DNA of 64,000 nucleotides, taken from NCBI RefSeq assembly GCF_041146345.1, contig NW_027191406.1:1178001-1242000 (forward strand), in the 5' to 3' direction. The position numbers and the translations under genes were made by a program. The notes below the pieces were generated by a model. The model had not been told where the DNA came from. It made no database searches and worked only from the letters and a program-made list of their open reading frames with translations. Every line of letters begins with the position of its first letter. The stretch's first letter is position 1. This stretch comes from Neodothiora populina. Its lineage: Eukaryota. Positions 4,270-25,963 of the stretch are shown in pieces.

Positions 4270-6501
4270 CTAAGCGTCGCCACCAGCGGGTGCAGGAGTG
4301 CTGCCAGGTTGAGGGGTTCCGCTTCCACGAGCACCGCGGCCTCTACCCCGTCCGCTCTCGCCTCTTCCACGGTATCCTCCACGACCGCGGCCGCGTCCAG
4401 AGTCAGAGTCGGACGCGCGCTCGCCGCCTGATCGGTATCCGCCCTCTCGTGCACCGGCCTGAGCTCCTCCGCGCGAGGATCCCCAGGTGCCGGCACCACC
4501 GTGGTGGCCACCTCTTGCGCCTGCACTTCTCTGTACCCTAAACTCACTAATCCTAAGGTTGGAGTATTTCGAATCCTTGTGGGGGCTGCGTTGGAGCACC
4601 TCTTGCATAATCTCCGGGCTGTCAAAGTGCGCGATCCAGAAGCCCTTGCTCGTCTTCTCCAGCTTGTTGATCTTCTTGCCATCCTCTTCGGTGAAGATCT
4701 GGCGGACTTCCGACTCTTCGTTCTTGTCGCCCGCGATCGGAGGAATGAAGATGGCCTGCGATGGCTTGGGCGCTTCTTGAGGGATCGGGGCGGACTTGGG
4801 GTCGGCGGCAGCGGTGCCGTTGGGCTTCTCGTCAGCCTTTGCGCCGTTCGCTGCAGGGAGTTGTGGGGTGACAGCACGCTGAGGTGCAGGTGACTTGGTC
4901 TGCTGCGGGACGGGGACGATGGGCTTGGCGGGCTGTTGGGGTGGTTGAGCGCGCGGCTGGGCCTGAGCCGGGGAGGCAGCAGGCACAGGGGCGGGAGTGG
5001 CAGCGTTGCTGTTGGTGGCGGTGGTGGGGCCGGCGGTCGACGAAGGAGCAGCGGCCTGCTGACCGGGACGCTGGGGGGTCTTGGTTCCTCTGTGGGAGAA
5101 GTTGAAACCTTGAGCACGCATCTCTGTTCCTATCCGGCCTTGATCAATATCGAGCACCAGCCATCCAAAGGCAGCGTCTGCCAAGTTGAAGTTCCACATG
5201 TTCTTGAAAGCGCTCTCGTCCACCTGGCCGCTCGCGGGACCGCCGAAGCCGCCGCCGAAGGGATTGCCACCGTTGGCCACGCTGGGCATCTTGGTGACGA
5301 TTTCGATTGCGAGCTGCAGCAGGCGCTGTTGTGACTCGTTGTCTGCCACCGCCGGCTCGACCTCGGATTTGACGGTTTCCCAGACGTCGTTGAAGGAAGC
5401 CTTGGAGGCAGCGAGCTTGCCGCGATAGTGATCGAGGGTGGGGTTGACAGAGAATTCGTTGTAGGAGCTGCCGTAGCGGAAATGCAGACCGGCGGAGATG
5501 GAGAAATCGGCCTTGAGAGCAACGGAGAGCTGGTTCAGCAGGCCTTCTCTGGCGGGAGAAGCGTGAGTGACGAAAACGCGGGTTTCGGTGGGGTCATAGA
5601 CACGGTTGGCGGTATCCACGAGCTCTCCGATCTGCAGAAGAGTCGTCCACATGGTGCCTTGACCGCCGGCAATGGTCGTCCTGCCCTCGCCATTGTCAAA
5701 CAGCTTGTGCATGACCACCGCTCCGCCGAGACCCAGGAGTCGCAGCTTCACTCCGCCGACGTCGAGTAGTCGCGAGTGAGCCTCGTCGATGATGTGCAGG
5801 TTGGGAACATTGTAGTCGCCGGAGCGGAGCTTCTCCAACACCGAGACATCCTCACACGCTCCCCAGACAGTGTAGACGGGGACTTCGAGCTTGAATTGGC
5901 CGGAGAGAAACTGGGGCAGTTCGGAGAGCGGGAGGCGATCACGGTGGAAGCGTTCCTTGATGGACGTCTGGGGCGGTGCGCGGGCGATGTCGGCCTTGGT
6001 GGTTTCGGTGAGAAGAGGAGAGTACTGCGCCACGTGTTTGAGAGTCCTGTGGATCAGGTCAGTGAATCGCCCGAGGTCATCATGTCATACAAGGCGGCGT
6101 ACTTTTCGGCGATGCGATTGAGCGAGGTGTCGTCGTAGAAGCCAAAGTCACCGGTGTGGATGATATGATCTGCTTTTGCTTGACGCGCGAGGTCGTTGAG
6201 GGATCGGAGGTTGCCTGGTCACAGACGAATGATGGTGGTCAGTTCTTGCGTCTTGCTGGAGTTCTGCTAGAAGCACTGCAAGTGTCACGTTGACGGTGGT
6301 GGCGGCGGTGGTTCAGTAATAGATAGTCTGTTGCTCACCTCTGACATCTGCGATACACAACACTCTCGCGCCATTTGATTGAATCACGCGACCCTGGTTG
6401 GGTAGAAGTGGCGTGGCTCCTGGTGCAGGAACGCCAGATGGTGCACCGTTTGGCATGTATGCTTGGCTGTAGGCACGAGGTTGGGAAGGAGGTTGCTGCA
6501 T
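4270..6501 (-). CDS. DUF2433-type calcineurin-like metallophosphoesterase-fold protein with P/Q/A-rich linker, RRM-like segment and RGG tail (~683 aa)
   Basis: Exons 6501-6339, 6214-6103 and 6046-4270 join in frame via GT-AG introns. Motifs LCIADVRG, IIHTGDFG, VWGACED, FVTHASP and SAGLH; C-terminal RGG/GRG repeats. Confidence 0.85.
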
Positions 6502-7256: not shown

Positions 7257-8794
7257 TCAATATTGCATCGCATCTTCAAACAATTGTCTCAGTTGGCCCC
7301 TCTCCTCGTCTTGGTTCTGCATCTCCAGGTTTGGCGCCAGCATCAGCACTCTCGCTTGAGGGATGGTGCCTTCAACTAATCCATCGATGTCCTTGTTTTG
7401 GAAACCAAGTGCCTTGAGGCCTCTGGGCTGGTCGCCCAACTTGACGAGAAACTCGGCAATTGCCTCGCTCAACACTTCGCCCGCGCTCTCAAGCTTGACG
7501 TTGCTTATATCTACGCCGAATGCTTCTGCCGCCGCCAAATGCCTCTCGGGATTGCTGGCTGCGGTGAACTTGAACACAGCCGGCGCCGAAACTGCGACAC
7601 TGACACCGTGAGGGATGATATCATGATCAACGGCATAACCTTGGTGCTTGTAGCCAGGGTTCTGCCCACTGATGGGATAGCTCATACCGTGACAGAGATG
7701 TACACCTGCATTTCCGAATCCCACGCCTGCGAGCGTCGCCGCGAGCAACATCTGGCTCTGAGCCTCTGCATCATCAGGGTCTTTGACCGCACGAGGCAAA
7801 TACTTGACAGTACTGCGTAGTGCTTGCAAGGAGAAGATGTCTGAGATGGGATTTGCACCTTGGTATGCTGGTCTATTGATCGGGTTCTGCGGTCGAGGTA
7901 CGCGCTCGTAGTAAGGTATTGCCGTCCAGGATTCCAGCGAGTGACAGAGGACGTCAAGACCGCTAGAAGCATGTACTGCACTCGGCATTGTTCGGGTATT
8001 GATGGGGTCTACAATACCAAGTGTGGGCTTCAGGTTTCTGTGCGCAATACCAGTCTTTGCCTTCTTGTCAACGAGATCGAAGATGGCGGTGCCTGTTGTC
8101 TCAGAGCCGGTGCCTGCAGTGGTGGGAACTGCAATCAGAGGCTTGAGCTTGCCCTGGATCGGTAGACCTCTGCCTAGTGGTGCATTCACAAAGTCGAGGA
8201 AATCGGCTTCGGGGAACGAGTTGTACAAGTTCATCAACTTCGCCGTGTCCATGACGCTACCTCCACCTACTGCCAGGAATGCATCGGCATTGTAGGGCTT
8301 CGAGAAGGCGATCGCCTCCTTGATGCTGTATAGTCATAAGTGATCTGCGATATCCGCCCATCCTGAGGTACAGCCACTTACGAGTAGTCCTTCGGTTCGA
8401 CCCGGACCTTGCTGTACACCTCGTATGCGATGCCCTCCCTCTCCAATCCCTCTCTGACCTGCTTCATAGCATCCAGCTTCTCTACCGTGCTATCTGTTAC
8501 CACCATGACCTTCTTCGCTCCCATGTTCTTGAAATCCATGCCCACTTCTTTTGTGCATCCTGGGCCGAATCGGATGCTCGATGCTGCCATTTCGAATGCA
8601 TATTCTTTTTGCTGGCTGTAGTCTATCGGGGTCGCCAGTGCACGCTTTGACTGCGATACCGCGAGCGGTGACAAATGGTTGTGGTGGTGTCCCGGATTAC
8701 TGTGACACGGGCAAGTAGGAGAATGCGAGCCGATTGTTCGGAGCAGATTCAATGCACGCGTTGCCCGCGTGGGAGCTATCCTGATTGCCGCCAT
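7257..8794 (-). CDS. ADHFE1: Hydroxyacid-oxoacid transhydrogenase (iron-containing alcohol dehydrogenase family), likely mitochondrial (~493 aa)
   Basis: Exons 8794-8382 and 8325-7257. Motifs EYAFEMAASSIRFGPG, AVGGGSVMDTAK, PTTAGTGSETT, DVLCHSLES, GVHLCHGMSYPI, PHGVSV; Arg-rich presequence. Confidence 0.93.
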
Positions 8795-9425
8795 TGTTGA
8801 TTTTCTAACCAGCTTGTAGCTTATTTCTAGCCTACTGACTGCAGAAACACAAATGTTCCTGTAAGACAAGAGGATGCAGGTGCAAGAGACTCAAAAGTGC
8901 ATATTATTGCCGGACCCGGTTGCTTATGGGGAAGCGTGCGGGGATATGCAGGTGAGGTCGTCATTATCATTGCCCGCTTCGCCGAGGTACAAAGAGGTAG
9001 AGTAGATACACGAGCTTCTACACTCTGACGACCTCTCTGACCTTATCGTTACCCATAATTGTAATATCTTCCTTAGTCAAGTTTCCTTTCTTCATAGCCG
9101 ACGTATAAGCAATCGCCTGCGTCCGACACAAGGTCCACGGTTTATTTGCCCCACTTACAACTCGCTCGAATCCATAACGTGCTGCTTCAAAAGCCGAGGT
9201 CTCGGCCTTTTGTTGGAGATGGAACAGACTGTACTCATATAACCGTGACACAAGGTATCATACCTGTAGTGATCGAGCGAGTAGCCACATCATCGAATAA
9301 AATCGTCGTCCAGTACGAGAGCAAGTCAGGCCTCAGTTATCCATAATTATAGCAGACCATCTCAACAATCTACATCTTGTGTAAATATATAGCTCCGCAA
9401 AAGCGCTGACTAATCATCAGTCAAT

Positions 9426-9519
9426 GCTGCTGTAGCTCAGTGGTAGAGCGTGGGATTGCAGTTTCATCTATACGAAGCCAATTATCCTAAGGTCCGTTGT
9501 TCGACCCAGCGTAGCAGCT
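9426..9519 (+). tRNA. tRNA-Cys(GCA): tRNA-Cys(GCA) with 22-nt intron (9462-9483)
   Basis: Acceptor GCTGCTG/TAGCAGC, D arm GCTCAGTGGTAGAGC, anticodon stem TGGGA/TCCTA with GCA at 9458-9460, T arm CGTTG-TTCGACC-CAGCG, U discriminator, downstream T tract. Confidence 0.93.
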
Positions 9520-12500
9520 TGTTTTTTGTTTTGTATCTCCCGCTTTTCTCTTTTTGATGTTCTGCATGCTTGTATACGCTTACAATACAATACTCGTCAA
9601 TCTTTGTAGGCCATGTCATGGGCATGTATCATCACTCCTCAGTTGTGAGTAGGAGATGCAGCTCGAGTGCAGTTTTCGGGACTGTGAGAAGATTACCTTA
9701 CTACAGCATGGTACGCATCCGACGGTTCATCTGCGACAGAAATGATTGATGATGACATCTTGACCTATGTCGATGATATTAAGAATGTCGTTCTACTGAG
9801 CATTGAAGCTGTGTCAGTTGTCGCGGACAGGGTTACCCTGCATAAATCATATTGGTCGCATACCTGCTTGCAGCAGAGTCAATAGAAAGCTATCCTCGAC
9901 ATGAAGTATCGTATCGACATCTATAGGTACTGTAGCATCGCATGATAAGATAAGTGTTGCGTGTTCGACAAATCACTTTCACAGCTTTTTGTCTCTGCAC
10001 CAAAAACTCTCTGACAGGCAGGGTAGGTGAGTTGCCCTAGATCATGAGGAGTAAAAGGTAAGGTACGCGCATGAAAGTCTTGTGTTTAAAGGTGTAGCAG
10101 TTATTGAAACGTGGGCATCGTTAGTAGAACGATTTAGACGACTACGTGAGACACAAAAAATTACACGACTCGCATGCGACGAGGCTTGCCATAGATGAAG
10201 GCTATGCCACGCGCATTGTGTGAAGTCTGGCGATGTTCAAAGCTGTAGATGACATGAGCTCATACGACATGGAAATGTAGCATTGACATGTGGCCAGCCG
10301 TGGCTTTTCTTCCTGCCTATGGTGTCCAGGGCCTGATATTGGCCTTCGCTAACCGTCACGAGTGGCATAAAGGCTACCCAGTGACGAGAACATCCCCAGT
10401 GAATTGGGTTTCCCACAGTGGAACGGTGTGACCGATAACGCTCCTAACGCTCCTCAAGCGTTGGCAAACTCTTGAACAGTCTGGGTAGCGGCAGCAGAAG
10501 TCGCCTCGCTGTTCGCAAGGCTGGACTTGCAGTGGCTCTAGAGGTTGTACAAGGTTGAGATCTATGCTATCAATATTGATCCATACGGCACCAGGTCTGG
10601 AAATGGTAGGAGGACATGCTCTGCCCTGCTCAAGAACGGCAGGTGGCGGTAGAGGATGACACTATCACCTGTCAACCCTTTTTTTCCGGGTCGATTTCGT
10701 GAAGACTCGAGGTCTGAATGCTACTTTCTCGGAGCAACCTGCTCGCAGAATGTGGTCTGTGGCGGCACTATTGGTGTGAAGACTGGATGACCCACTTTGC
10801 CCAACGAGAGTGCTTGTGGATTCCAAGATCTGCCGTTTACCCCGTGTCTCGGAAGAGCTGCGTGGGGTCAGTAAACTGTGCTTGCTGCAGTAAATGACTC
10901 GAGACATATTCCCGAACATAGGCTCAACTTTCGAGTGTACACTTTGTGCAATTGATCAGCAAGTGAGGCTGCCGTGATATTGGCATTTCGTTGGCAACAA
11001 TTATTATGTATTTAGATTGTCTCCGCTCTTCAATTCAGGAAGCCAAGAAAGTCGAAGAGCTCGGCGCTGGCGACAACAGCGCGGAGGGGCTCAGCACGGA
11101 GAGGGTGGTGAAGTCCGCTCGGTTGTTGCGGCAGCTGTCAAAGATAGAGGCTTGAAGAGGATGAACTTTGTTTTGAGCCTTCATGTTCATACTTTTGTTG
11201 CTGACCTCTCGCAAAAACATAGTGTAGCTAGCTTTGGCTGCAAATTTACGGGAGACCTATGAGGCCATCAGGACGCGCAGTGTCGTTGCTGGGCACCAAG
11301 CAAACAAGGCTACATAGTCAGAATACAGATACAGAGTATCTTTTTGCAAGGCGATATGTATGACAGACGCTCGTTGTCCTTTGGTGGACCGAATCATAAT
11401 CAGTTGAAGTCAGATTGCAGTAGAATAGCACTAAGTACCTAAGTAGACATCGCAGGTCCTCGGGGAATAAATTCTCGTGAGCGGGTGGCTGCATTGAGAC
11501 CACTATATAGCAAGGCAATTTATCCAAGAATTACCTTTCGCTCTTCGGGTACCTGGCTGTGCCTGGCATGTGAGAGTACATTCCCGCCCAACCCTTACAG
11601 CGCAACCTTAACATACACATTCGCTTCAAGGTAAAGCGTCGCATTCTCAGGCTAGCTTGATCTAAACTCGCATCACGTTACTAGATATGCATTCGCGCGA
11701 CATGATGTGGACAGTAAGGCTCGACAAGACAAGCAATGTGTTATAGCCTATAGGACTAACGCCTGCGTTTATACGCTAACAAGCAGAGAAACCTTAGTGG
11801 AACTTAGATTCCTTCACAATTGATGCCAGGTACCATGTTGATTTCTATTTCGGTCCTTTCGAGAGCTAAGGCACGAGTTCGAAAAACCTTCTTGCTTGAG
11901 TAACAGAACAAATGCATCGAAAATCCGTATGTAGTTCATTCAGACCACGGAACCCTAGGTAAACAGCATTCGTAACACTACCCTGTTTGTAAGTAAGATG
12001 GCAGGACTGAATGACTGCGCCAGGCTTGTATCAGCTGTACCGAAGGAGAACTATCTGCATCTTGTAGACACGTAAGGTTGAGACATTATACATGACCACT
12101 TGGCCACGTTTATGTAGACTCTTTCTGCTTGCACGGGTGCTTGTGTATTTGGCACGACTATCTGAACTCGTGCCGTGCGTTGTACTAGTAGTGGGTGATG
12201 TAAAACTAGGCGTGGCTGTGTGAGAGCTCAGCGCAATTGGCAAATTTTGGTAGCAATGGCATAGTGGATTCGGATGGTCTGCTAGTGCTACCTATGGCAG
12301 CATAGCAGTAGGTAGGTTGAGCTGGGCAGGCATAAGGCTACACTACACCACCAACTGCTGGTCAGAAGCTTTTCCCATCTTATCTTGACTCAGGGCCAAG
12401 CAAATCCCAAGTCGCGATCGCCAACTTTACGGACAAAGCGCGCCTTTATTGCAATAGCACCGATTTCTCCACTTCTTTATTTCAGCCTTCCCGAGCGGAG

Positions 12501-13236
12501 AGCCGTTACACGTCCATCGAGCACGCTGTGTCGTAGGAAACGTTCACACTGATCATGGCACAGACGTGGAAGCAAATATGTTCAAATTGAAAAGAGATGA
12601 AGGTGAGAATGCATGGGAAGCGTGAGAGAAAGGGTACTTGCGTTCGGGTCTGGTTCAGGATGTCAGGTCTGCAGTACCTCTGGTACTTGCCATTGGAGCA
12701 AAATGTCCGATGCAGTCATCTACACGCATACCTTAGCCATGCTTTGGAAACCCGTCACGGGAGGCAACTCGCTACGATCCATTCCAATGGTACCGGAGAT
12801 CCCTCCCTCAGCCGTAGTGTTTGAGGACCATGCGGATAGTGGGCCACTTGACGCCTCAAAGCGAAGGATGTACCAGATGCATGAGCAGCAATCCTCGATT
12901 ATTCCACATTGGGAACTCTGGAAGCATTAGACGCATATTAGGATCCATATCCGTGCCACAATTAGTGACTCGGCATGGCAACACTAGGTTCAATTTCCCA
13001 AAAAGCTCGTCTGTCAATACGACCTGCTAGAGTGTTCTTGTGGTGCCGTGCAATATGGCTCCAACAACTATTATATAGATAGTCCTCGACATCCTCGACG
13101 GGAACTTGAAAGTCCATCTCGATTCCTTTCAACTCACTCCATAGGCTCCATTCGCTCAGCCACTCCATGTGTTCCTCTTTGCATACTTTGTTTTAGTGTA
13201 CTGCTGCTGTATATTCTTCCTCGCACTCGGATCGAG

Positions 13237-16200
13237 ATGAGAGTAGTTTTCTGGTCGATCGCACTATGTGCGGTAGGCGCCCTTGCAGCCCCGAATTCAC
13301 AACAGATCAGACGTGCCTCGACCAGCCAGGAAGGTAGTTGTGGTGCCTCTAATGGCAATACTTGCCTGGGTTCTTTTCTCGGAGACTGCTGTTCATCAGA
13401 TGGACAGTGTGGCAATACCAACATCTACTGCGGTCAGGGATGCCAGAGTGATTATGGTAACTGTACAGGTACGGTCAATGGACTCATGATCTCCAATGAT
13501 GGTAGTTGCGGTAGTGGTGTCACCTGCCAAGGTTCTATATATGGTGATTGCTGCTCAGAGTATGGGTTCTGGTAAGTGTCTTGGTTCGCATCTTCATTGG
13601 CAAAGTACTGACGGGCGAAGCGGATCCACAAGCGACTACTGTGACACTACGTGTGATGACTCGTCCGGTCTTTGTGGGACAACTACCTCATCTGCTTCAA
13701 CAACAATCCCGACTGCATACGGCAATTCAACAACGACTACACGCGCTTTGGCAGCTTCGACAACCAACCCTACCTGCCCAGTTTCGAATGGCACAATCTA
13801 CATTGCCTCAAGCTTGAATCAGTATGAGGTCGAGTGTGGATTTGACCGTCCCGGAAATGACATCAAGATGGTCTCAGTATACTCCAATACTATCTCCGGC
13901 TGCGTCACTCAATGTGAAGCTACAAACGGCTGCGTGTACGTGCACCAAAAGGCTTCATGGAGACTATCGAGCTAATCTCAAGTCTAGCGATATCATCATG
14001 AGTGGCACCAGCTGCTACTTAAAGAACAAGGTTGGCAAACCGAAGAAAAGTGCCAACTTGAGAGGTGCTAGATTGTTCAAGCGTGGACCGTCCCCAAGCA
14101 ACACCTTTACCACTGCAAGTTCGCCTACTACCTCTGCCTCATCAACATCAGCGACGGCCTCTTCTACGTCAGGCACTATCACGTTAACAGGAGCCAGTTC
14201 TACGTCGAGTGGAACTTCTGCTACGTCGCGTGAAGGTTCTGCTACATCAACAGGACCAGCACCAACTTCTATAAACCCGACATGTCCAGCTTCCAACACG
14301 ACTGAGTTCGTCGCCTCGAGCGGAGCTATCTTCCTTATTGAATGCTACATGGACCGCGTTGGGAACGACATGGGTGCAGTACAGATTTACTCGAACAGAA
14401 TTACAGACTGTATCAACAAGTGCGACTCTACTCAAGGGTGTATCGATATATCCATGTCCGGTGAGTCAATATGTGAGAGACTGCAGTGGAAGACGTCTAA
14501 CAAGTTCAGGAACCTCATGTTACATGAAAAGTCAGGCTGGGAGTTACTGGTCCAGCAACAAACAGGTTCGAGGTGCTCGTATGATCTCTGCTGCACCTTC
14601 GCGCAGCAGCACTATGGGCAGCTCTTCCTTGGTGTTGAATAGCAGTAGCTCTTCTGTCGTCTCTGCTATGCCATCTGGTAGTGCCAACTTGACTAGCTCG
14701 AGCGCATCAGCGACGAGCAGCTCATCTAGCGCTGCTGGTAGTAGCAACATCACCAGTAGCACCGCTGGTAGCACCGTGGGCAGCATTATCAGCAGCACCA
14801 CCAATAGCACTATCAACAGCAGTGTCAGTTCAACTTGGGCATCGGGTTATCCGCATCCAAGTGCGAACATTACTTCTCTACCCACAGGCACCGGAATCTC
14901 CTCTAGCACCTCACTGTCACTGAGTACTGGAGCCTCGAGTTATGTTCAGACCAGTGGTACCAGCTCTAGTGTACCATATGGCAATGACACTGAAACAGGA
15001 ACTTCCAAGACGGTTAGCCCAACTGCGCCGATCGGAACGGGAAGCTCTTCTTCTCTACCTCACGGCACCGGAGCATCAAGCGGTTCATCTTCCAGCACCA
15101 GGAGTGTCCCTTATGGCAATGGCACTAGCATCGGTGTCTCTGCTGGCCCTACCGGCACCGGAGCTAGCTCATCCATCCCACTGGGTACTGGAATTACGTC
15201 TGTGCCAGGCCCAACTAACAGTACCACCTCGACATCGATCACAATCCCCTTGACCACAGCACCACTGACCACTGGTGCGTCATCTGGAGGTTCCATACCA
15301 ACTTCCAATGACACTGGATCCTTTACCAACTCTACGACTATAACCAGCAGCACAACTGCTGCAACCTCAACCACTTCATACGCATTCCTTCCTGGCGGTA
15401 TCTCCTCTGGCCACCCACTAGCGTCGAACACAACCGCATGCACCACCAAGCCAATCTCGACGGGAACTTGCAACCGATGCGAGGGACAGCCCGGGACCGA
15501 TAGGTTCTGTGGTTACACTGCCTCCGACAATTCCTACGATGTCATGCCCAAGACTTGTAACACGGTCGAGTACAGTATCGATCTCACAGAATGTACTGTA
15601 TCTCCCGATGGTCTCGCACGCAAGGCTTTATGCGTCAATGGACAGACACCTGGACCGCTCATTAAGGCTAGCTGGGGCGATACCGTTGTCGTCCATGTCA
15701 CCAATTCCATGTCGAAAAATGGCACTTCAATCCATTGGCATGGCATGCGTCAGAACTACACCAATGAAATGGATGGCGTTGTCTCCATCACTCAATGTGC
15801 TCTAGCACCTGGCCAGAGTCAGACATATACATTCAAGGCTACCAACTACGGCTTTTCATGGTACCATTCTCATCTCACGCTCCAGGCATATGAGGGATTG
15901 TTCGGTCCAATGCGCATTCACGGCCCCGTCTCTCAGTCTGCCGACGCTGAGGCGGGTAACTTGATCATTCAAGACTGGTCGCATGTCCCTGTAGATGACA
16001 TGTATATCGATGCTCAGATCAACGGAGTCCGCACAATGGATACTGGCCTGATCAATGGTATGAACGTATGGGGAGACGATGGTTCCTCTAATCAGACCGG
16101 GCAACGCTACACGGTGCCTACCAGTTTTGTGCCTGGACAGAGCTACCTGTTCAACATTGTCAACACGGCCATTCAATCCACCTACAGGTTCTACATCGAC

Positions 16201-17195
16201 GGACATAAGATGACGGTCATCTCGGCAGACTTCGTCCCGATTGTGCCATACGAGACGGACGTTCTTAGCATCAACATCGGCCAGCGCTACCAAGTCATCG
16301 TCACAGCTGATCAGGCCGTCGGAGATTACTGGCTGCGCTTCGATAATCAAAACGCATGTGCTAGCACTGTCAAGTCTGACAACATCAAGGGCATAATCCA
16401 TTACGCGGGCAGTGCAGGTGGCCTTCCCACTTCGACTGCGTACAACTACACTCGCAAATATGCAGGCGATCAGATCCTCGGAGAATGCAAGGACGAAGAG
16501 CTGTCCAATCTGATCCCATACTCACCCATCGATGTTGGCACTCAGACGACCGAGGTCGGACATAACGTTGTTGTTTCAAACTCGAACAGTCTGAATCTTT
16601 ACAGGTGGTATCTAGATGGTACCACGTTTCAATCCAACTGGGCGGACGCAACACTTTATGGCATCTACAATAATGACACAATTCCTGACTATTCCGGTAA
16701 CCTTGCCATCGAGTTGCCGAACCTGGGAGAATGGGTCTATGTCATCATCGAGTCTCCTGTACCGTTGGGTCACCCGATCCACTTGCACGGCCATGACTTC
16801 CACATTCTGGCAAGAGGATTCGGTACCTACAACAGTGGTGTGGAGCTGAACCTCAAGAATCCTCCTCGTCGTGATGTTGCGTTCATGCCTGGCGATGGTC
16901 CGACCGGACAGGGTGGCTTCCTCGTGCTGGCATTCCTGACTGACAATCCCGGAGCTTGGCTGATGGTGAGTAGCTCTTCTGCATGTTTTTATGGAGAGCG
17001 ATAAAGCTAACGAAAATTGAATAGCACTGCCACATTGGCTGGCACGTGGCCATGGGATTTGCTCTGCAGTTCATCGAGGGTCAAGATCTCATCAAGGACA
17101 CCGTGACCGACTCATGCATGCTCAACGACGTGTGCGATACCTGGCGCGACTGGGCCGACGAGTACAGCATCCACACTGACGACTCCGGTGTGTAG
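13237..17195 (+). CDS. Modular secreted laccase-like multicopper oxidase (AA1): signal peptide, 2x hevein/CBM18, 2x PAN/Apple-like, Ser/Thr-rich stalk, 3 cupredoxin domains (~1249 aa)
   Basis: Exons 13237-13571, 13621-13935, 13988-14460, 14510-16965 and 17025-17195 total 3750 nt in one frame; all introns GT-AG with branch sites. Cu motifs HWHG, WYHSH, HPIHLHGH and HCHIGWHVAMGF; C-terminal DSGV typical of ascomycete laccases. Confidence 0.9.
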
Positions 17196-18532
17196 ACGTG
17201 CGATCTTGTCGACACTCAGACTGTACATAGTGCTCTGGCACATGCATATGTGTTCTTTTACTTTCTTCGCTCCAACAGAGCACGCCTGTTAGGACTTTTG
17301 TTCATACCCGACCAGGATTTTTGTTTGTTCGATTTGGTTCAGTACGAGAGGGCAGCAATTCAACAGGGGAAAAGGTGTTGATGTGTAGATGTGGTTGCTA
17401 ATGTATATGTTTTCGATGAATTTGTATCGTTTATGCTGGCTTCGTTTATGCTGGCCTCGATAGTCTCGATAGAGTGGGTCCTGACACGGGTATTCATTAC
17501 CTTATGTTCGAATACAGGAACGTTTGCCATGCTGTATAAGGTCGATACCTAAGGGAGTTTGATATGTGCCGCGACGGGCGACTTGGTGTTTGTATAAAGT
17601 ATATGACTCGTGCGGATCAAGTCGAAGACCCACCTGCAGCAGCGTCATCAGCCCCTATCTCATCAACAAAGGGCAAAGGGCGGTTGGCGGCGCGCTTAAT
17701 ATTAAATGTGCTACAGATTCGTGAGGCACCAGCACCGACCAGGGCTGACACGACTATACAAACGCGCTAGAGACTTCCGCAATGCACGGCATCATCCCTG
17801 AACATGGAAGAAGGCTGTACAAGTGCTGAAAAGGTGATTTACACTGAACAAGACACTATACATCGGATTTTATGTCGAGGCACAGAGGTGACAAGAATAG
17901 CGACAAGTCCCTGTTCATCTTGTCTATTTCGTCAGTCAAGACTCTCTGTCTAGTCCATCTCTAGTTCGTACTTCGAACTCTAGTCTATCCTGAGTCATCC
18001 CCAGTCAACTCCACCTCACCCGAGTCAACTCACATTCGTTGTTGTTATCGCCCGTTGTGCCTGGAGCGCGTCTTTTTACCCTATTAACTTCCGATTTAAT
18101 TGATCCTCCCCTTCCCCTCTCTTTTGGTCCCTAGCAACTGCCACAAAAGAAAAAAAAATAAGCAGATAGCAACATCACTCCTTTCGCGCTTGTTTTCTTA
18201 TTGCGTTTTGTTTCGTTTCCTCCACTCGGGCGTCTCATCTGTTATTCGACCGCGGCCTTCCGCCCGCCAACATACTGTATATCGCGAGCCTCACCGACTA
18301 CTTCTCACATGTTACACCAGACCGGAGAGAGTATGTGGTAGCGACATATAATTCAGCACGACAAGGACACTATTTAGGATAAGGCAGCCATCGGGCGAGA
18401 CTCTGGACGGAAGATTGCTGGCAATCTCATCGCTGCTTATTCAACCAATCATCAATTCACCTGCATCTTGATCTTCTACCAGAGCTGGACACTGTCACTA
18501 TCTCTAGCAAGCCAGTCGTCGCTTCTACAACA

Positions 18533-21425
18533 ATGGACAACCAGACTGTAGAGTTTCCTCTCCCTACGCCCTCGCTGTCTGGCCATGCAGCATCCGACTC
18601 TTTAGTCAGCGTACCTCTGTCCGACTCGGTCCGCTTCTCCGTCACCACCTCACAAGCCCGGGAGCCCGACTCACCGACCGCACATCAGGACGAGGAAGAT
18701 GAAGAGTACATGGCGTCGCTGTTGGCGAGATTGGAGATGGAGAACAATGCCCTGGCAACAGATCCAAAGAATGCAGCTGTACGATCAGTGTCCATGTCTA
18801 CACAGAGCCCTGCACGTGACACAGATACGAGCTCTATACACCCCAGTCTACATGTTCCCCCGGAAGCCCTTGGAATGAGTCTCGGCGACTTCTGGTCTTC
18901 TGTGGTCAGAGACTACCCTGAAGCCCTAGCCTCTATGCCGACTCTGACACCCATCATGATTCGAAAGGGCGTTCCAGACTTCCTTCGCCCAGTGGTATGG
19001 GGCAGTCTTGTCGGCGCGCGTGATCTGGATCTATGCTCCGAGTTCCAGCTATTGCTTGAGCGTCTTGAGGTCGAGCATTCGAGTATCGATGGAATCATTG
19101 ACAAGGACCTCGGCCGGTGCTTTCCCACACACGAACTCTTCATGCACCCCTCGGGAGAAGGTCAGCGGATGCTTGGTCAGGTGCTCAAATGCTACAACCT
19201 GCACGATCCAGAGATTGGGTACTGCCAGGGCATGGGGTTTGTTGTCGGCATTCTTCTTATGAAGATGGAGGCCCAGGACGCCTTCTGCGTATTCGTCCGG
19301 TGAGTGGCAAATGGGCCCGTGCAATTCCTTTCTACCTGCGTGCTGATTTGCTTTCAGACTAATGGAGACCCACGGTCTACGCAACTGCTACTCCAAATCA
19401 CTATCTGGACTACACCTACGGATCTATCAATTCCAGCAATTACTAGCTCCCTTGTCTCCTAATCTCCTAGCCCATTTCAAGAACCTCGGTGTCGAATTTG
19501 CCTATCTCTCACAATGGTTTATGACCATCTTCGCCACCACTTGCCCGCTGGATACATTGTTCCGCATTTACGATGTTGTACTAGCCGAAGGAGCAGACGA
19601 AACTATCATGCGTGTGGCGCTTGCTCTCATCCTCAAAAACGAAAACAAGCTATTGGACATGACTGAAATTGAAGATGTGCTCCAGCTGCTTTTAGGAAGA
19701 GGCATCTGGGACCCTTACGAAGGAGGAGCAGATCAGCTCGTCGAAGAAGTCACAAGTCTATTCGGTCAAGTTGTCACCAGGACTGTCTTGGACAAGCTTC
19801 ACAAATCGTTCCTCAGGGAGTCCGAGGGTCCGGCAGCGGAGAAGACCGCCCGCGCTCTCGGATTCGGTAGTCTTCACGGGAGTGCATTCAGGCTCTTTGA
19901 CAACTGGTGGGCACCGTCCAAGTCTACATCTCTATCGCCAGCCGGATTCCTCCGACGCACCACATCCAAGCAATCTCTGTCGACATTGAATTCTTTGTCG
20001 GGTGGAAGTGGCGCCGATAGCTTAGCGAGCACAGATAGCTATGCCAGCACAGCCCCGACCGAGGTCGAGCGCAACCCCGAAAGGGACAGCGCAACACCGA
20101 CGAAGATGCATCGCTCTGTGCGTCAAGAAGACCGCAGCCTGCATGAGCAGGTCGAAGGTCTTTTGATGGCTCTGAGTGAAGTACAACGGGAAGCTGCACA
20201 GACAGCCGCTGATCTGCAGAAAGAACAAGAGAAACGCGACAAAGCCCAGAACATAGTCGTGGACCTCATGAAGCTCTTCCATCAGAAGAACACCGTTGAT
20301 GCATACACTCATCAGCGCCGCATTACCTTGCCATCACGCATCACCGCCGAGCAGTCGAGTGCTGAACGAAAAGAGTTCCGGCGAAGGTCCAATTTTGTCA
20401 AGTCAGTAACGAAGAGTATAATGGCTGGTAGTGATCCTGCACTTGACAACAATCTTGGACTCCAAGCGTCACTACTGAAGCTGTGTGCATTGTTCGACGA
20501 GGAGCAATCCATGTCCCAGACCAGGATAGCTGCGTTCACCAAAGATGCGCCCATGTCTGATGAAGCTTCCACTGAGGCTCAAATTCTTCAACTCGAAGAC
20601 GAGCTCGCTGCTCTCCGTCAGAAAATGCACAATGACCGAGCTCGGCGCGACTCGAAGCGAAGCGCGGATTCAAAGGGACTACGTAGCTCAACAGACCCCA
20701 TCGACAACTCCTCAGAGCCAATTCGAACTCGCCGGGATCTTTACTCACGCCAAGGCTCAGTCAGAGATACATCACCTGTCACTTTACGAGCGCCAGGACC
20801 TCTATCTATATCAGTTCCTCGTATGCGGCCACACCATGCCAATTCCTTTCCCCAAAACTCATCTCCCGTCTCACGAAGTGCCTCACCTCGTCCTCGGATG
20901 ATCAAGACTCAAGACGGTCGGGAGACACCAGCACCTCAGAAATTCACTAAGCGAACGTCGAGTCTGGTCTCGCGGAACATTCTGGCCACTCCCGATCAAC
21001 AGACACCACCCGACGAAACCTTGCTCGTTGAGCTCGTGGCAGCCAAGACACGCGAAGCTACCGCCATCCAGGAGCGGGACGAAATGAAGGTCCAGCTTGA
21101 CAAGATGCGGCGTATGCAGGAGGCTCGCGAGCATGAACTCCAGGGACAACTGGAGAGTGTGCAAGCTATAATGGCCGCACAAATGGAAGCGCACATGGTC
21201 GAGTTGGAGCGGCTGAAGTCCTTCTATGCCGCAGTAGGCGGTGCCATCAGTCCTGGAACTGCAGGCAGCCTAGGTCCGTCACCCGCGCCAACGCATGAAC
21301 CAGTCGCGTCTGCTGCGGGTCAGAGCAAAGGATGGGGCTGGTTTGGTAAGGGAAGGACAGCCAGCACGCTCAGCACGATGAGTACTACCAGCAATGGAGG
21401 TGGTGCAGGCACCGCTACTTCTTAG
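18533..21425 (+). CDS. TBC-domain Rab GTPase-activating protein (Gyp5/EVI5-like) with C-terminal coiled coils (~944 aa)
   Basis: Exons 18533-19299 and 19358-21425. GVPDFLRPVVW, Arg finger IDKDLGRCFP, Gln finger YCQGM, YLSQWFMTIF; C-terminal LVAAKTREA coil and GWGWF. Confidence 0.9.
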
Positions 21426-22044: not shown

Positions 22045-24296
22045 ATGAACGGGTTCAGTAGTAGTAGTTTTGCCCATCAAGCTCAAACCCCCCTCCCCAT
22101 AATACTTTACAAGCCCCGAGAGGCTTTGCGACGAACAGGCAGGAGCACGACGATCGATCCGCTCGGCCCGTCGCACCTCGTCTTGTCTCGCTCTCGAACA
22201 ATGAACATACGGGAGCTGTGCGACGCGATTGCTCACTCCATCTCGCAAAGTCTCGCGCAAAGTTTCCAGTCTGGTCGAATTGGTCAGAGTGATAATGTGC
22301 TGAGGGTGTTTGGTGCTGTGGGAGCAGGAGGAGGAGGAGGTGGTGGTGGTGATGGTGATGTGGCGGGTACTTCTGCGGCTGCTGCTTCTGTCGACTTTGT
22401 ATGTTCCCAACGCCCCTCTGCTGTCGCTCCGCCCCAATCACGTCTTGTTGATCAACGACTTTTGTAAATTCCACCTGTGCTCACATTTTATCTTTGCCTC
22501 TGATAAGGGTAGCTTCGATATCTCCGGTCTTGGGCGGGAACAAGAAGCTGATGCGCCCAGTGCTGAGGCTGCCTCTGATTCGCATGCCAGCGAAAGAGAG
22601 GAGTCGTCTATTTCGGCTACTGAAGAACAACAGCAGCAGGAGGCACAGCAGTATCAGCAGCAGCATAGTATAGTCTCAGCTTCAGCTTCGGCTCAATCAA
22701 CGAGGCTGAGAACGAGACGAGTACTCACTCGATACGATGAATCTGACAGTTCAGAAAAAACCAAACGCAGGAAACTAACGGGAGGTCTGCGTCTCGTTCC
22801 AGGGAACGGTGCAAGTACACCTGAAGAATATGAAGAGCCTGAACCAGTCCTAGGCAGGCGCCTCCAGCCAAGCTCAAGGTTGCCGCAGAGAAAACTGCCT
22901 GGCAAAGACGAACCGGCAATGAAACCCTCCACACTGAGCAAACTCATCGTTGGCATCTGGGAGCAGATATTCAGTAGTATTAGCTTTGACATGAGTGCCG
23001 TTGCCGAAGAATGGCATGATCAAGGTCTAATCACTGAAGAGACAAGCAGCGCAGGCACTTCCCCAGCAGCTGCGAATATAGTACCACGCACGGCGAACCG
23101 GGCGTTCAGCCAGATGAATGTCTTGTGCCGCAAAATCAGCCAGGCAAGTCGTGTGAGTCGCGCGCTCGAGGTCATAGTGCAAGCCAGGTGGATAGAGCAC
23201 TTTGACGACCGCACGCAGACCATTCTCAGGGGAAGCGGTAGCGTCACACTGACAAGAGCGAAAATGACTGCGTTGGCCGAAGCATGCCGAGACTTTGGTT
23301 GGACTGAAAAGGAGCTACGCAATAAAATGTAAGTAGATATCGATTTACCAAGAGCAAACAATGCTGACGCAGACAAGGGCTATCTGGCGCGGCTATCAAC
23401 AAATCAAAGAAGAAGGCGGCTGGGTCTGTTTGGTGTTTGCCGGCATGGGCATCTACCGCTTCTGCAAATATCGTGTCGAGTTCACAGCCGAGGCCATGCA
23501 AACCATCAGACGGCTGAGATCGCGTTTCGAAGTCGCCGCAGACACATTGCATCCTCGCTGGCGGGAGATGCTGTCCATCGTCGACGCCGCCTCGCCGCGG
23601 CTCTACACCGGCCATCCCCACGACTGGGTTGTGTCTGACTACGAAGAACCCGTGCCCCTCGCACAAACCTATCTAGAATGGGATCCCAACTTCACATTCA
23701 CGCACCTGGACACATCCGTCGTCGACGTGCACGCCTGGGGAGCATCAGACCCACGCCTGATAACATCACAAACCTACAAGAGCACCTACGTCTGCCACGT
23801 GTGCGCCGAGCACCAATCCGACGACGCAGCGGAGAACGCCTGTCGCTGTTTCCCGAACCTCTTCGGAAGCAGCAACATGACGCCCGCCCCGGTCCAAGTC
23901 TTCCGCACGCGCAACGGCAAGAACAACGGCCTCATAGCGTGCTGTCCCATCGAGCGCGGCACAGCCATCGGCGAGTTCCTTGGTCTCGTGACGAAAGGCC
24001 TCGAAGGCGTCGACGTCATGCAGGCCGCAGCCGAGCAGGGTCGCTATCAGATCTGGCAAGGCCGCGAAGGTAACCATACCAAATTCGCAAATCACTCGTG
24101 CAGACCCATGGCGCAGTTCGAGCGCTTCGTGTGGATGGGCACCGAGCGATGGATCCTCGTGTCAAAAGGCATAGAGGCTGGCACGGAGATTACAGTCGAC
24201 TACTCGGATTCGTATTGGCATAATCTGGAGAAGGTGTGCTTGTGCAACGAGGCGTGCTGCAGATTCAAGGACAAGGGCAGGGTCAGGAGTATATGA
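22045..24296 (+). CDS. SET-domain protein (putative lysine methyltransferase) with uncharacterised N-terminal region (~697 aa)
   Basis: Exons 22045-22398, 22508-23328 and 23378-24296 in frame. SET motifs KNNGLIA, IGEFLG, KFANHSCRP, EITVDY; post-SET CLC...CC. The start exon is less certain. Confidence 0.82.
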
Positions 24297-24629: not shown

Positions 24630-25963
24630 CTAGCAGGCAGCGCCAGAGGGAATACCCTTGCACTTGCTCGACTTCTTACCACCAGTGACGGAAACGCCGC
24701 TCCAGGTCCAGCTACTGCAAGACGCGCAAAGGATATAAACCTCAGTGGCATCGCTCGCGACCGAACCAGTGACACCGCTAAGCGTAAGATCGGTGACGGG
24801 AACACCAGAGGTAGGGATACCAGTGGGCGAGCCGTTCTCGTAATCTTGCTCGATGACGACGCCGTAGTCGGTGATTCCGCTGAGAGTGATGTCCTTGTAG
24901 GTCACGTTCTTGACTGTGCCGGTCTCGCCGCTGACGGTCTTTATGCGTACGCCGTTCGCGCTGTTCTTGATGATGTTGTTGTAGATGTACACGTTCTCGA
25001 CCGTGTTGTCGCTGCGGCCGCCGACGGAGCCGATGGAGAGGCCGTGGCCGCCTGAGCAGGTGCCGCCGGTGAAGGTAATGTAGGTGCCCGAGTTTACGGC
25101 GAGGCAGTCGTCTTGGTTCTGGTAAGGGGTTAGCGATTTGCGAGGGGGAACTGGGGCTGGCACGATCGGGGGGATGCTTACCTGGACGTTGGCGTTGTTG
25201 ATGGTAATGTAGGTGCTGTCACCGACATCGAAGGCATCGGTGTTGTGAGCAAGAGCCTTGCCGCCGGACAGAGCATCACCGGCGGAGTTATCGATGGTGA
25301 TCGAGTCAAGAGTCTACAAAGGATATCAGTTCCTTATGACAAGCAAGCATCTTCATTGATACAGAAGGGAGACTTACAAGGTGGTCAGAGCCATCAATAG
25401 AGAAGACCTGCACAGGCGAGTTGATGACCTTGATGCTGGAGATGGTGCTGTCGATCATGTCGTGCGCATAGAAGAACTTGGGCTTGGTCTTTCCTCCGTT
25501 GCCACCCTTGGTGTCCCAGTACTTTGAGCCTTGGCCATCCAGCACGGCGCCACTGGCTCCCTTGACGGTGAGGGAAGTTCCGCTGATGGACAGCAGAGGT
25601 CCATCCCACTCCTTGTAGCCAAAGGTGGTAGTGCCCTCGAAGATGACAGTGGTGCCCTTGTTGAGCTTGGTCAAGTCAAGAGTGGTTCCTGTAAGATATG
25701 TTAGGAGGTGATGCTCTTGATGGGCGTTACACGAGTCACTCGAGCTTACCAGATGGGACGGCAAGGGCGCTAAGAACGATGGTCGCGCAACTGGCCTTGG
25801 ACTTGATGGCAGCAGCAGCACCACCAGAGCCAGAGAAAGTGCAAGTAGTAGCGCGGTCCTCGAGTTTAGCAGGAGCAGTAGGGACAGGGGCAGCGGCGGG
25901 GGCAGCGAAGACACCTGCTGCAGCACCAAGGATGCTGGCAAGCGCCAACTTTGTCATGATCAT
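24630..25963 (-). CDS. Secreted endopolygalacturonase (GH28) (~381 aa)
   Basis: Exons 25963-25750, 25688-25378, 25313-25182 and 25118-24630. Signal and propeptide ending LEDR; catalytic motifs [25 protein letters not shown]. Alternative ATG at 25957. Confidence 0.95.

Follow-up and report, generated by a model that had tools for sequence, protein, structure and literature searches.

We analysed a 64,000-nucleotide stretch of the Neodothiora populina genome (NCBI RefSeq assembly GCF_041146345.1, contig NW_027191406.1, positions 1,178,001 to 1,242,000 of the forward strand), hereafter the window, in which a five-exon gene on the forward strand (window positions 13237..17195) encodes a modular laccase. 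Removal of four introns yields a 3750-nt coding sequence of 1249 codons plus stop, and the 1249-aa product is ordered as a signal peptide, two CBM18 (hevein) units, two PAN_4 modules, a stalk of about 290 aa and a three-domain laccase. Judged from the gene model and from homologues, this is almost certainly a single gene with a head-stalk-laccase architecture. Its product is a further member of a catalogued and widespread kind of modular laccase, an architecture for which our literature search turned up no characterised member.

The exons lie at 13237-13571, 13621-13935, 13988-14460, 14510-16965 and 17025-17195. They are separated by introns of 49 nt (13572..13620, GTAAGT...AG), 52 nt (13936..13987, GTACGT...TAG), 49 nt (14461..14509, GTGAGT...CAG) and 59 nt (16966..17024, GTGAGT...TAG), all with CTRAC-like branch sites, AG acceptors and sizes usual for filamentous ascomycetes. 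This exon model was picked from an enumeration of GT/AG choices that give one open frame, the alternatives spanning 1249-1261 aa. The ATG at 13237 is the earliest in-frame ATG in a frame that opens at 12988, with a TATA-like sequence some 160 nt upstream. Junction 1 rebuilds the invariant hevein core CCS..G.CG, and across junction 4 the Cu-oxidase_2 profile runs on, exon 4 ending on position 115 and exon 5 opening on position 116. Introns 2 and 3 do not interrupt their PAN copies at the same codon, so that each spliced PAN stretch corresponds to contiguous exon sequence in the other copy; the spliced copies match gap-free (GCVDIIMSGTSCY vs GCIDISMSGTSCY).

An alternative is that a gene for a secreted lectin and another for a laccase were misread as one. 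In the closest named relative, Delphinella strobiligena, the corresponding protein (P0001, 80% identity) is annotated as a headless laccase of 643 aa, and the splicing and single-transcript status of our gene rest on sequence logic and homologues. However, the first Met of the Delphinella model lies inside the Ser/Thr stalk and no signal peptide follows it, so P0001 is probably an N-terminally truncated gene model. In N. populina, the C-terminal part of the second PAN module, the stalk and the laccase share one 909-codon open frame (14275-17004) with no in-frame stop, and stop codons interrupt the other forward frames along the stalk. A signal-like hydrophobic stretch follows Met1 only (mean Kyte-Doolittle value 2.55, against at most 1.15 after the 11 other Met before residue 760), and a stand-alone laccase would therefore begin without a signal peptide. 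Residues 1-405 are collinear from residue 1 with three Aureobasidium proteins (P0010, P0014 and P0013; 45-46% identity), which run on into laccases 72-73% identical to that of N. populina. Fusions of head and laccase also appear in independent annotations from Aulographum, Cenococcum, Parastagonospora, Ascochyta, Tothia and Amniculicola. Against this array of evidence, a pair of genes is very improbable.

The laccase catalytic part (approximately residues 700-1249; 15484..17195, forward strand) spans intron 4 and comprises three Cu-oxidase domains. Pfam matches were above gathering scores for all three, with 131.5 bits for Cu-oxidase_3, 106.6 bits for Cu-oxidase and, for Cu-oxidase_2, 82.5 bits in exon 4 and a further 20.5 bits in exon 5. 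The copper motifs L1-L4 (HWHG at residue 783, HSH at 827, HPIHLHGH at 1129 and HCHIGWHVAMGF at 1194) fit the ligand patterns HxH, HxH, HxxHxH and HCHxxxHxxxxM/L/F and align to those of Aspergillus niger McoG and of the Botrytis aclada laccase. McoG is the nearest solved structure (5LM8; E 1.2e-131, 443 bits), its alignment spanning the entire catalytic part encoded by exon 4, followed by the Botrytis laccase (3SQR; E 5e-111); E values of about 1e-74 to 1e-68 were obtained for Melanocarpus and Thielavia laccase structures, and none better than about 1e-52 for basidiomycete laccases. The exon 5 product matches the final 56 residues of 3SQR, terminal residue included, the two proteins ending in DDSGV and DDSGI, respectively. 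By these motifs and profiles, the catalytic part is a complete three-domain ascomycete laccase (CAZy AA1, AA1_3-like).

Two features of this laccase may bear on its chemistry and its construction. The axial T1 residue is Phe, which is shared with McoG, whereas the Botrytis enzyme has Leu; a non-coordinating axial Phe tends to accompany a higher T1 potential. The DDSGV terminus is an instance of the DSG(L/I/V) tail of ascomycete laccases, which inserts towards the trinuclear site. Since this C-terminal tail must stay free, the added modules may have been confined to the N-terminus. McoG and the Botrytis laccase, with chains of 549-580 residues, have neither head nor stalk.

The head is preceded by the signal peptide (residues 1-18; 13237..13290), in which the hydrophobic region is followed by a predicted cleavage site after ALA. 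The modules behind it are cut by introns, and Pfam was run on unaltered exon translations; CBM18 and PAN profiles were additionally built from homologue modules and scored on the spliced protein, with the PAN profile including modules that lie above the Pfam threshold (P0042 with 65 bits, P0039 with 42.3 bits). With these profiles, CBM18 unit 1 (residues 33-76; 13333..13464) reaches 47.3 bits and unit 2 (residues 89-130; 13501..13675, spanning intron 1) 41.7 bits, each with 8 Cys that are in register with homologues in the alignment. PAN_4 module 1 (residues 163-246; 13772..14075, spanning intron 2) and module 2 (residues 315-400; 14280..14586, spanning intron 3) score 95.1 and 94.1 bits, respectively. 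All of these features lie on the forward strand. Both PAN modules keep 6 Cys, as do all full-length aligned modules, and these would pair into three disulfides. Among 20 scanned homologues, PAN_4 exceeded the gathering score in 10 and Chitin_bind_1 in 2 (P0097 and P0112).

The chitin-binding face of hevein consists of a Ser plus three aromatics (Ser19, Trp21, Trp23 and Tyr30). CBM18 unit 2 (CCSEYGFCG....YC) retains the Ser and the aromatic positions, and unit 1 (CCSSDGQCG....YC) retains only the Ser and the Tyr. A canonical unit 2 (Ser-aromatic-aromatic-Tyr) is also found in many homologues from Pleosporales and Botryosphaeriales. Chitin binding by the N. populina protein is thus plausible on residue conservation, but not assured clade-wide.

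The Ser/Thr-rich stalk (residues 401-690; 14587..15456, forward strand) shares its exon and reading frame with the end of PAN module 2 and with the laccase. Its 290 aa include 48.6% Ser+Thr, 7 charged residues and 12 N-x-S/T sequons, together with four GTGxSS motifs and two copies of PYGNxT (residues 530-535 and 575-580), a motif that itself contains an N-glycosylation sequon. None of 2000 composition-preserving shuffles of the stalk produced at least two P[YH]GNxT motifs. PYGNxT occurs in one to four copies in 10 of the 120 best homologues described below, the carriers being from Aureobasidium (P0008-P0011, P0013, P0014 and P0043 among them) and Taxawa (P0012), along with P0006 and P0007.

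A sequence-only reading of this DNA had described five exons joined into one 1249-aa frame that encodes a signal peptide, two 8-Cys hevein units, two Apple-like modules, a Ser/Thr stalk of about 300 aa and a complete four-motif laccase. Our analysis bears out this description throughout. The chosen splice model gave the same length, hydrophobicity placed the signal peptide at Met1, and both hevein units were recognised by the homologue profile and the Cys alignment. The Apple-like modules could be assigned to PAN_4, the stalk measured 290 aa at the Ser+Thr content given above, and the laccase had all four motifs as well as the three domains.

How widely this architecture is spread was assessed by a homologue search with the catalytic part, which returned 4432 proteins at E <= 0.001 among 8000 candidates scored. 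The best 120 were analysed, each at least 49% identical to the N. populina laccase. Precomputed Pfam annotation lists PAN_4 in 12 and Chitin_bind_1 in 8 of these, and the homologue-built profiles detected CBM18 and/or PAN in 43 (both in 19, PAN only in 12, CBM18 only in 12; 77 had none). An N-terminal extension of at least 100 aa is present in 88/120 and one of at least 300 aa in 58/120. Many of the short rows stand beside long ones and represent fragments or models cut short; for example, P0063 and P0064 have identical cores and only one of them has a head. The recognised source names all belong to what we take to be Dothideomycete genera, bar two Quercus suber rows; Delphinella was placed in Dothideales by taxonomy look-up, which makes the source of our gene a probable Dothideales relative as well. 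The two oak-labelled rows (P0002 and P0047, 'laccase-2 [Quercus suber]') sit within a fungal clade, nearest to P0041, and are probably fungal contamination in a plant assembly. In P0002 (1151 aa), Cu-oxidase_3 and Cu-oxidase stretches each occur twice, which points to a model that is fused or duplicated.

A FastTree tree of the 121 cores, with SH-like support and a midpoint root, shows how the architectures cluster, not the direction of gain or loss. The N. populina protein falls in a clade of 16 rows (support 100) with Aureobasidium, Delphinella and Taxawa, of which 6 have CBM18 and PAN (N. populina counted), 4 have PAN, 3 are short and 3 are long without modules. A further clade of 48 rows with Pleosporales and Botryosphaeriales names comprises 14 with CBM18 and PAN, 11 with CBM18, 8 with PAN and 15 short ones. 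In a 51-row sister clade, many headless homologues, such as P0019, P0024 and P0012-like forms, keep a signal peptide and a Ser/Thr-rich extension of 300-750 aa. Since many homologues keep the extension without CBM18 or PAN, the stalk is conserved more widely than the head.

PAN modules also occur outside this family. A word-limited search among longer proteins with PAN module 2 gave 6 scored candidates, among them PAN-repeat proteins and P0122. The latter is a secreted 681-aa GMC oxidoreductase (GMC_oxred_N, GMC_oxred_C) with a Ser/Thr linker and a C-terminal PAN (residues 583-678) that is 71% identical to PAN module 2 over 96 residues. From this copy, the PAN module looks portable among secreted oxidoreductases of close relatives.

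The closest counterparts of the whole protein are five Aureobasidium predicted proteins (P0010, P0013, P0014, P0015 and P0009) of 1222-1402 aa, whose layout is identical. They are annotated as 'hypothetical protein', 'laccase precursor, partial' or 'Chitin-binding type-1 domain-containing protein'. Their catalytic parts are 72-73% identical to that of N. populina and their heads 42-46%, collinear from residue 1, and the PYGNxT stalk is common to both; however, CBM18 unit 2 of N. populina retains the aromatic positions that the Aureobasidium units have lost. In Cryomyces antarcticus, a melanised Dothideomycete, the multicopper oxidases CaMCO8 and CaMCO9 were reported to have extended N-terminal regions with predicted chitin-binding domains, one in the former and three in the latter; the available portion of that report does not mention PAN and gives no functional test (PMC11580375). 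Among our best 120 homologues is an 802-aa Cryomyces protein (P0038) with one CBM18 by the homologue profile. ZtrLac1A of Zymoseptoria tritici (AA1_3) is a further ascomycete-type laccase of a Dothideomycete fused to a carbohydrate-binding module. It differs in having a starch-binding CBM20, no CBM18 or PAN and, in the text available, no mention of a long stalk, and it belongs to another laccase clade, nearest the Melanocarpus laccase (PMC6700816). Among more distant systems, a Colletotrichum copper radical oxidase is, like our protein, a secreted copper oxidase with an N-terminal PAN/Apple domain, but it is described as an AA5 enzyme rather than a multicopper oxidase, with PAN_1 and no CBM18 (Mathieu et al. 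2020, as cited in PMC9024836). According to the citing source, the yeast wall sensor Wsc1, whose WSC domain has the PAN/Apple fold, shows this fold at work at the fungal wall.

What might such a protein do? The most sensible reading, which we consider probable on the domain content, is a wall-tethered laccase that oxidises wall phenolics such as melanin precursors. That the head binds chitin-containing wall material seems about equally probable. We hold more tentatively, and a little short of an even chance, that the physiological role is to melanise or cross-link the wall of the producing fungus itself. In this scheme, the secretory pathway would load the protein with copper and attach abundant O- and N-linked glycans. 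Once outside the membrane, its head would grip chitin and possibly a second wall polymer or protein, with CBM18 unit 2, whose aromatics are kept, binding chitin and the PAN modules giving the second contact. The stiff glycosylated stalk would keep the catalytic domain tens of nanometres off the anchor point. The laccase would take single electrons from phenolics and reduce O2 to water, and the resulting radicals would polymerise or cross-link in the wall. In these black fungi, the likeliest substrate would be 1,8-dihydroxynaphthalene (DHN) or a similar melanin precursor.

Several observations weigh against this proposal. On exon pieces, the head modules stay below the Pfam cut-offs: Chitin_bind_1 in exon 1 alone (residues 34-76) scores 24.6 bits against a gathering cut-off of 27.8, and PAN_4 scores 22.1 and 22.2 bits against 27, both matches stopping at the exon edge (that of module 1 covers the first 31 of the 51 profile positions). 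CBM18 unit 1 is without two of the three aromatic positions, and both units are degenerate there in the Aureobasidium orthologues; because of this degeneration, some members of the clade may bind chitin weakly or no longer bind it. A sister clade of 51 rows (Cladosporium, Pseudocercospora and Meristemomyces) has long Ser/Thr extensions and no head modules, and the head is therefore dispensable for the stalk-laccases of that clade. Our literature search found no binding, activity or localisation data for any family member.

The degenerate aromatic positions are compatible with another role for the head, namely that of a device for docking to proteins, for instance others of the wall or partner oxidoreductases, or of a chitin-shielding lectin that is incidentally linked to a laccase. 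The PAN on the GMC oxidoreductase P0122, which shows that the module is portable irrespective of CBM18, points the same way. However, unit 2 keeps the full Ser-aromatic-aromatic-Tyr set in N. populina and in the many Pleosporales and Botryosphaeriales homologues, and the Cys frameworks are intact throughout. We therefore regard docking or shielding as improbable.

The gene neighbourhood gives no hint of function and, like the headless sister clade, counts against a specifically melanin-related role, as none of the 10 large open reading frames scanned in window positions 1-26000 is a melanin, chitin or secondary-metabolite gene; polyketide synthase, reductase and chitin synthase are absent among them. 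The neighbours include a DUF2433/fungal RRM protein (4270-6084, reverse strand), an Fe-dependent alcohol dehydrogenase in two exons (7257-8890, reverse), a RabGAP-TBC protein in two large exons (18383-21425, forward), a SET-domain protein (23337-24296, forward) and a GH28 polygalacturonase in two exons (24630-25953, reverse). The approximately 4.3 kb upstream of the laccase gene (8900-13236) hold no frame of at least 130 aa; the few frames of 90-107 aa there do not look evidently coding, and the segment may be an extended intergenic or promoter region or else a gene of many short exons.

The head might also aim the laccase outward, at chitin of competitors or arthropods or, through PAN, at a plant-surface ligand, where the enzyme would detoxify phenolics of the host or competitor or damage its target. 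Many carriers are plant-associated by name, including Parastagonospora nodorum, Ascochyta lentis, Neofusicoccum, Phyllosticta and Diplodia. Yet black fungi that live on rock or as saprobes, Cryomyces and Aureobasidium subglaciale among them, keep the layout as well, and a glycosylated stalk of 290 aa is what wall-resident proteins typically have. Precedents can be cited in favour of outward targeting: the CBM20 of ZtrLac1A binds starch, a host polymer (PMC6700816), and PAN domains are described as general mediators of protein-protein and protein-carbohydrate contacts (PMC9024836). On balance we consider an outward aim unlikely, albeit a stronger contender than docking, and retain the wall-tethered laccase as our preferred reading.

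The sequence-only reading had inferred an oxidase tethered to chitin/glucan, a reasonable view of the function and close to our preferred one. It had also put this gene forward as a candidate for a novel system and stated that it knew of no characterised enzyme with this architecture. The claim of novelty does not hold. The same combination of two CBM18, two PAN, stalk and laccase is present in several Aureobasidium species, and the heads found in 43/120 best homologues, together with AA1-CBM18 fusions already in print, make the architecture largely common and described. AA1 modules were listed as joined to CBM1, CBM18 and CBM20 by Levasseur et al. (2013, PMC3620520), and the gene model, with an AA1 module and a CBM18 on one polypeptide, is a modular laccase in the sense used there. 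Multicopper oxidases with extended N-terminal chitin-binding regions appear in the 2024 Cryomyces paper (PMC11580375). The statement on characterised enzymes agrees with our literature search, which found no biochemical characterisation of a CBM18-laccase or a PAN-laccase. It also found no paper describing a PAN-laccase fusion, with matches judged on titles and abstract openings. ZtrLac1A has a functional CBM20, and its authors present it as the first laccase of modular build to be characterised (Haddad Momeni et al. 2019, PMC6700816). In a term search of a 2026 review on the physiological roles of fungal laccases, 'chitin' had 0 occurrences and the CBM20 laccase was the only modular case. Kabatiella KbLcc1, described as a laccase of about 72 kDa, was set aside as a comparison. 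PAN on laccases, a PAN shared with a GMC oxidoreductase and the PYGNxT stalk motif may be new to print, and would be modest additions.

A more specific version of the wall-tethered reading, which is speculative and in our view doubtful, is that the head-stalk-laccase subfamily is a dedicated wall-resident DHN-melanin polymerase of Dothideomycete black fungi. The CBM18/PAN head would then fix the enzyme at the chitin layer, the PYGNxT stalk would set the depth of the pigment, and PAN would be a portable address label common to other secreted oxidoreductases, so that oxidation in the wall would be the work of a spatially ordered machinery. The DHN-polymerising enzyme of these fungi is not named in the portions of the literature examined.

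In summary, the N. populina gene adds one more member to an architecture already catalogued and by itself opens no new question. Its interest lies with the family. Black fungi owe their stress tolerance, and many plant pathogens their virulence, to melanised walls, and both the site of pigment polymerisation and the responsible laccase are poorly resolved. A self-anchoring laccase would be a concrete candidate for this step, one with an orthologue in genetically tractable Aureobasidium, and its head could act as a natural tag for immobilising laccases on chitin.

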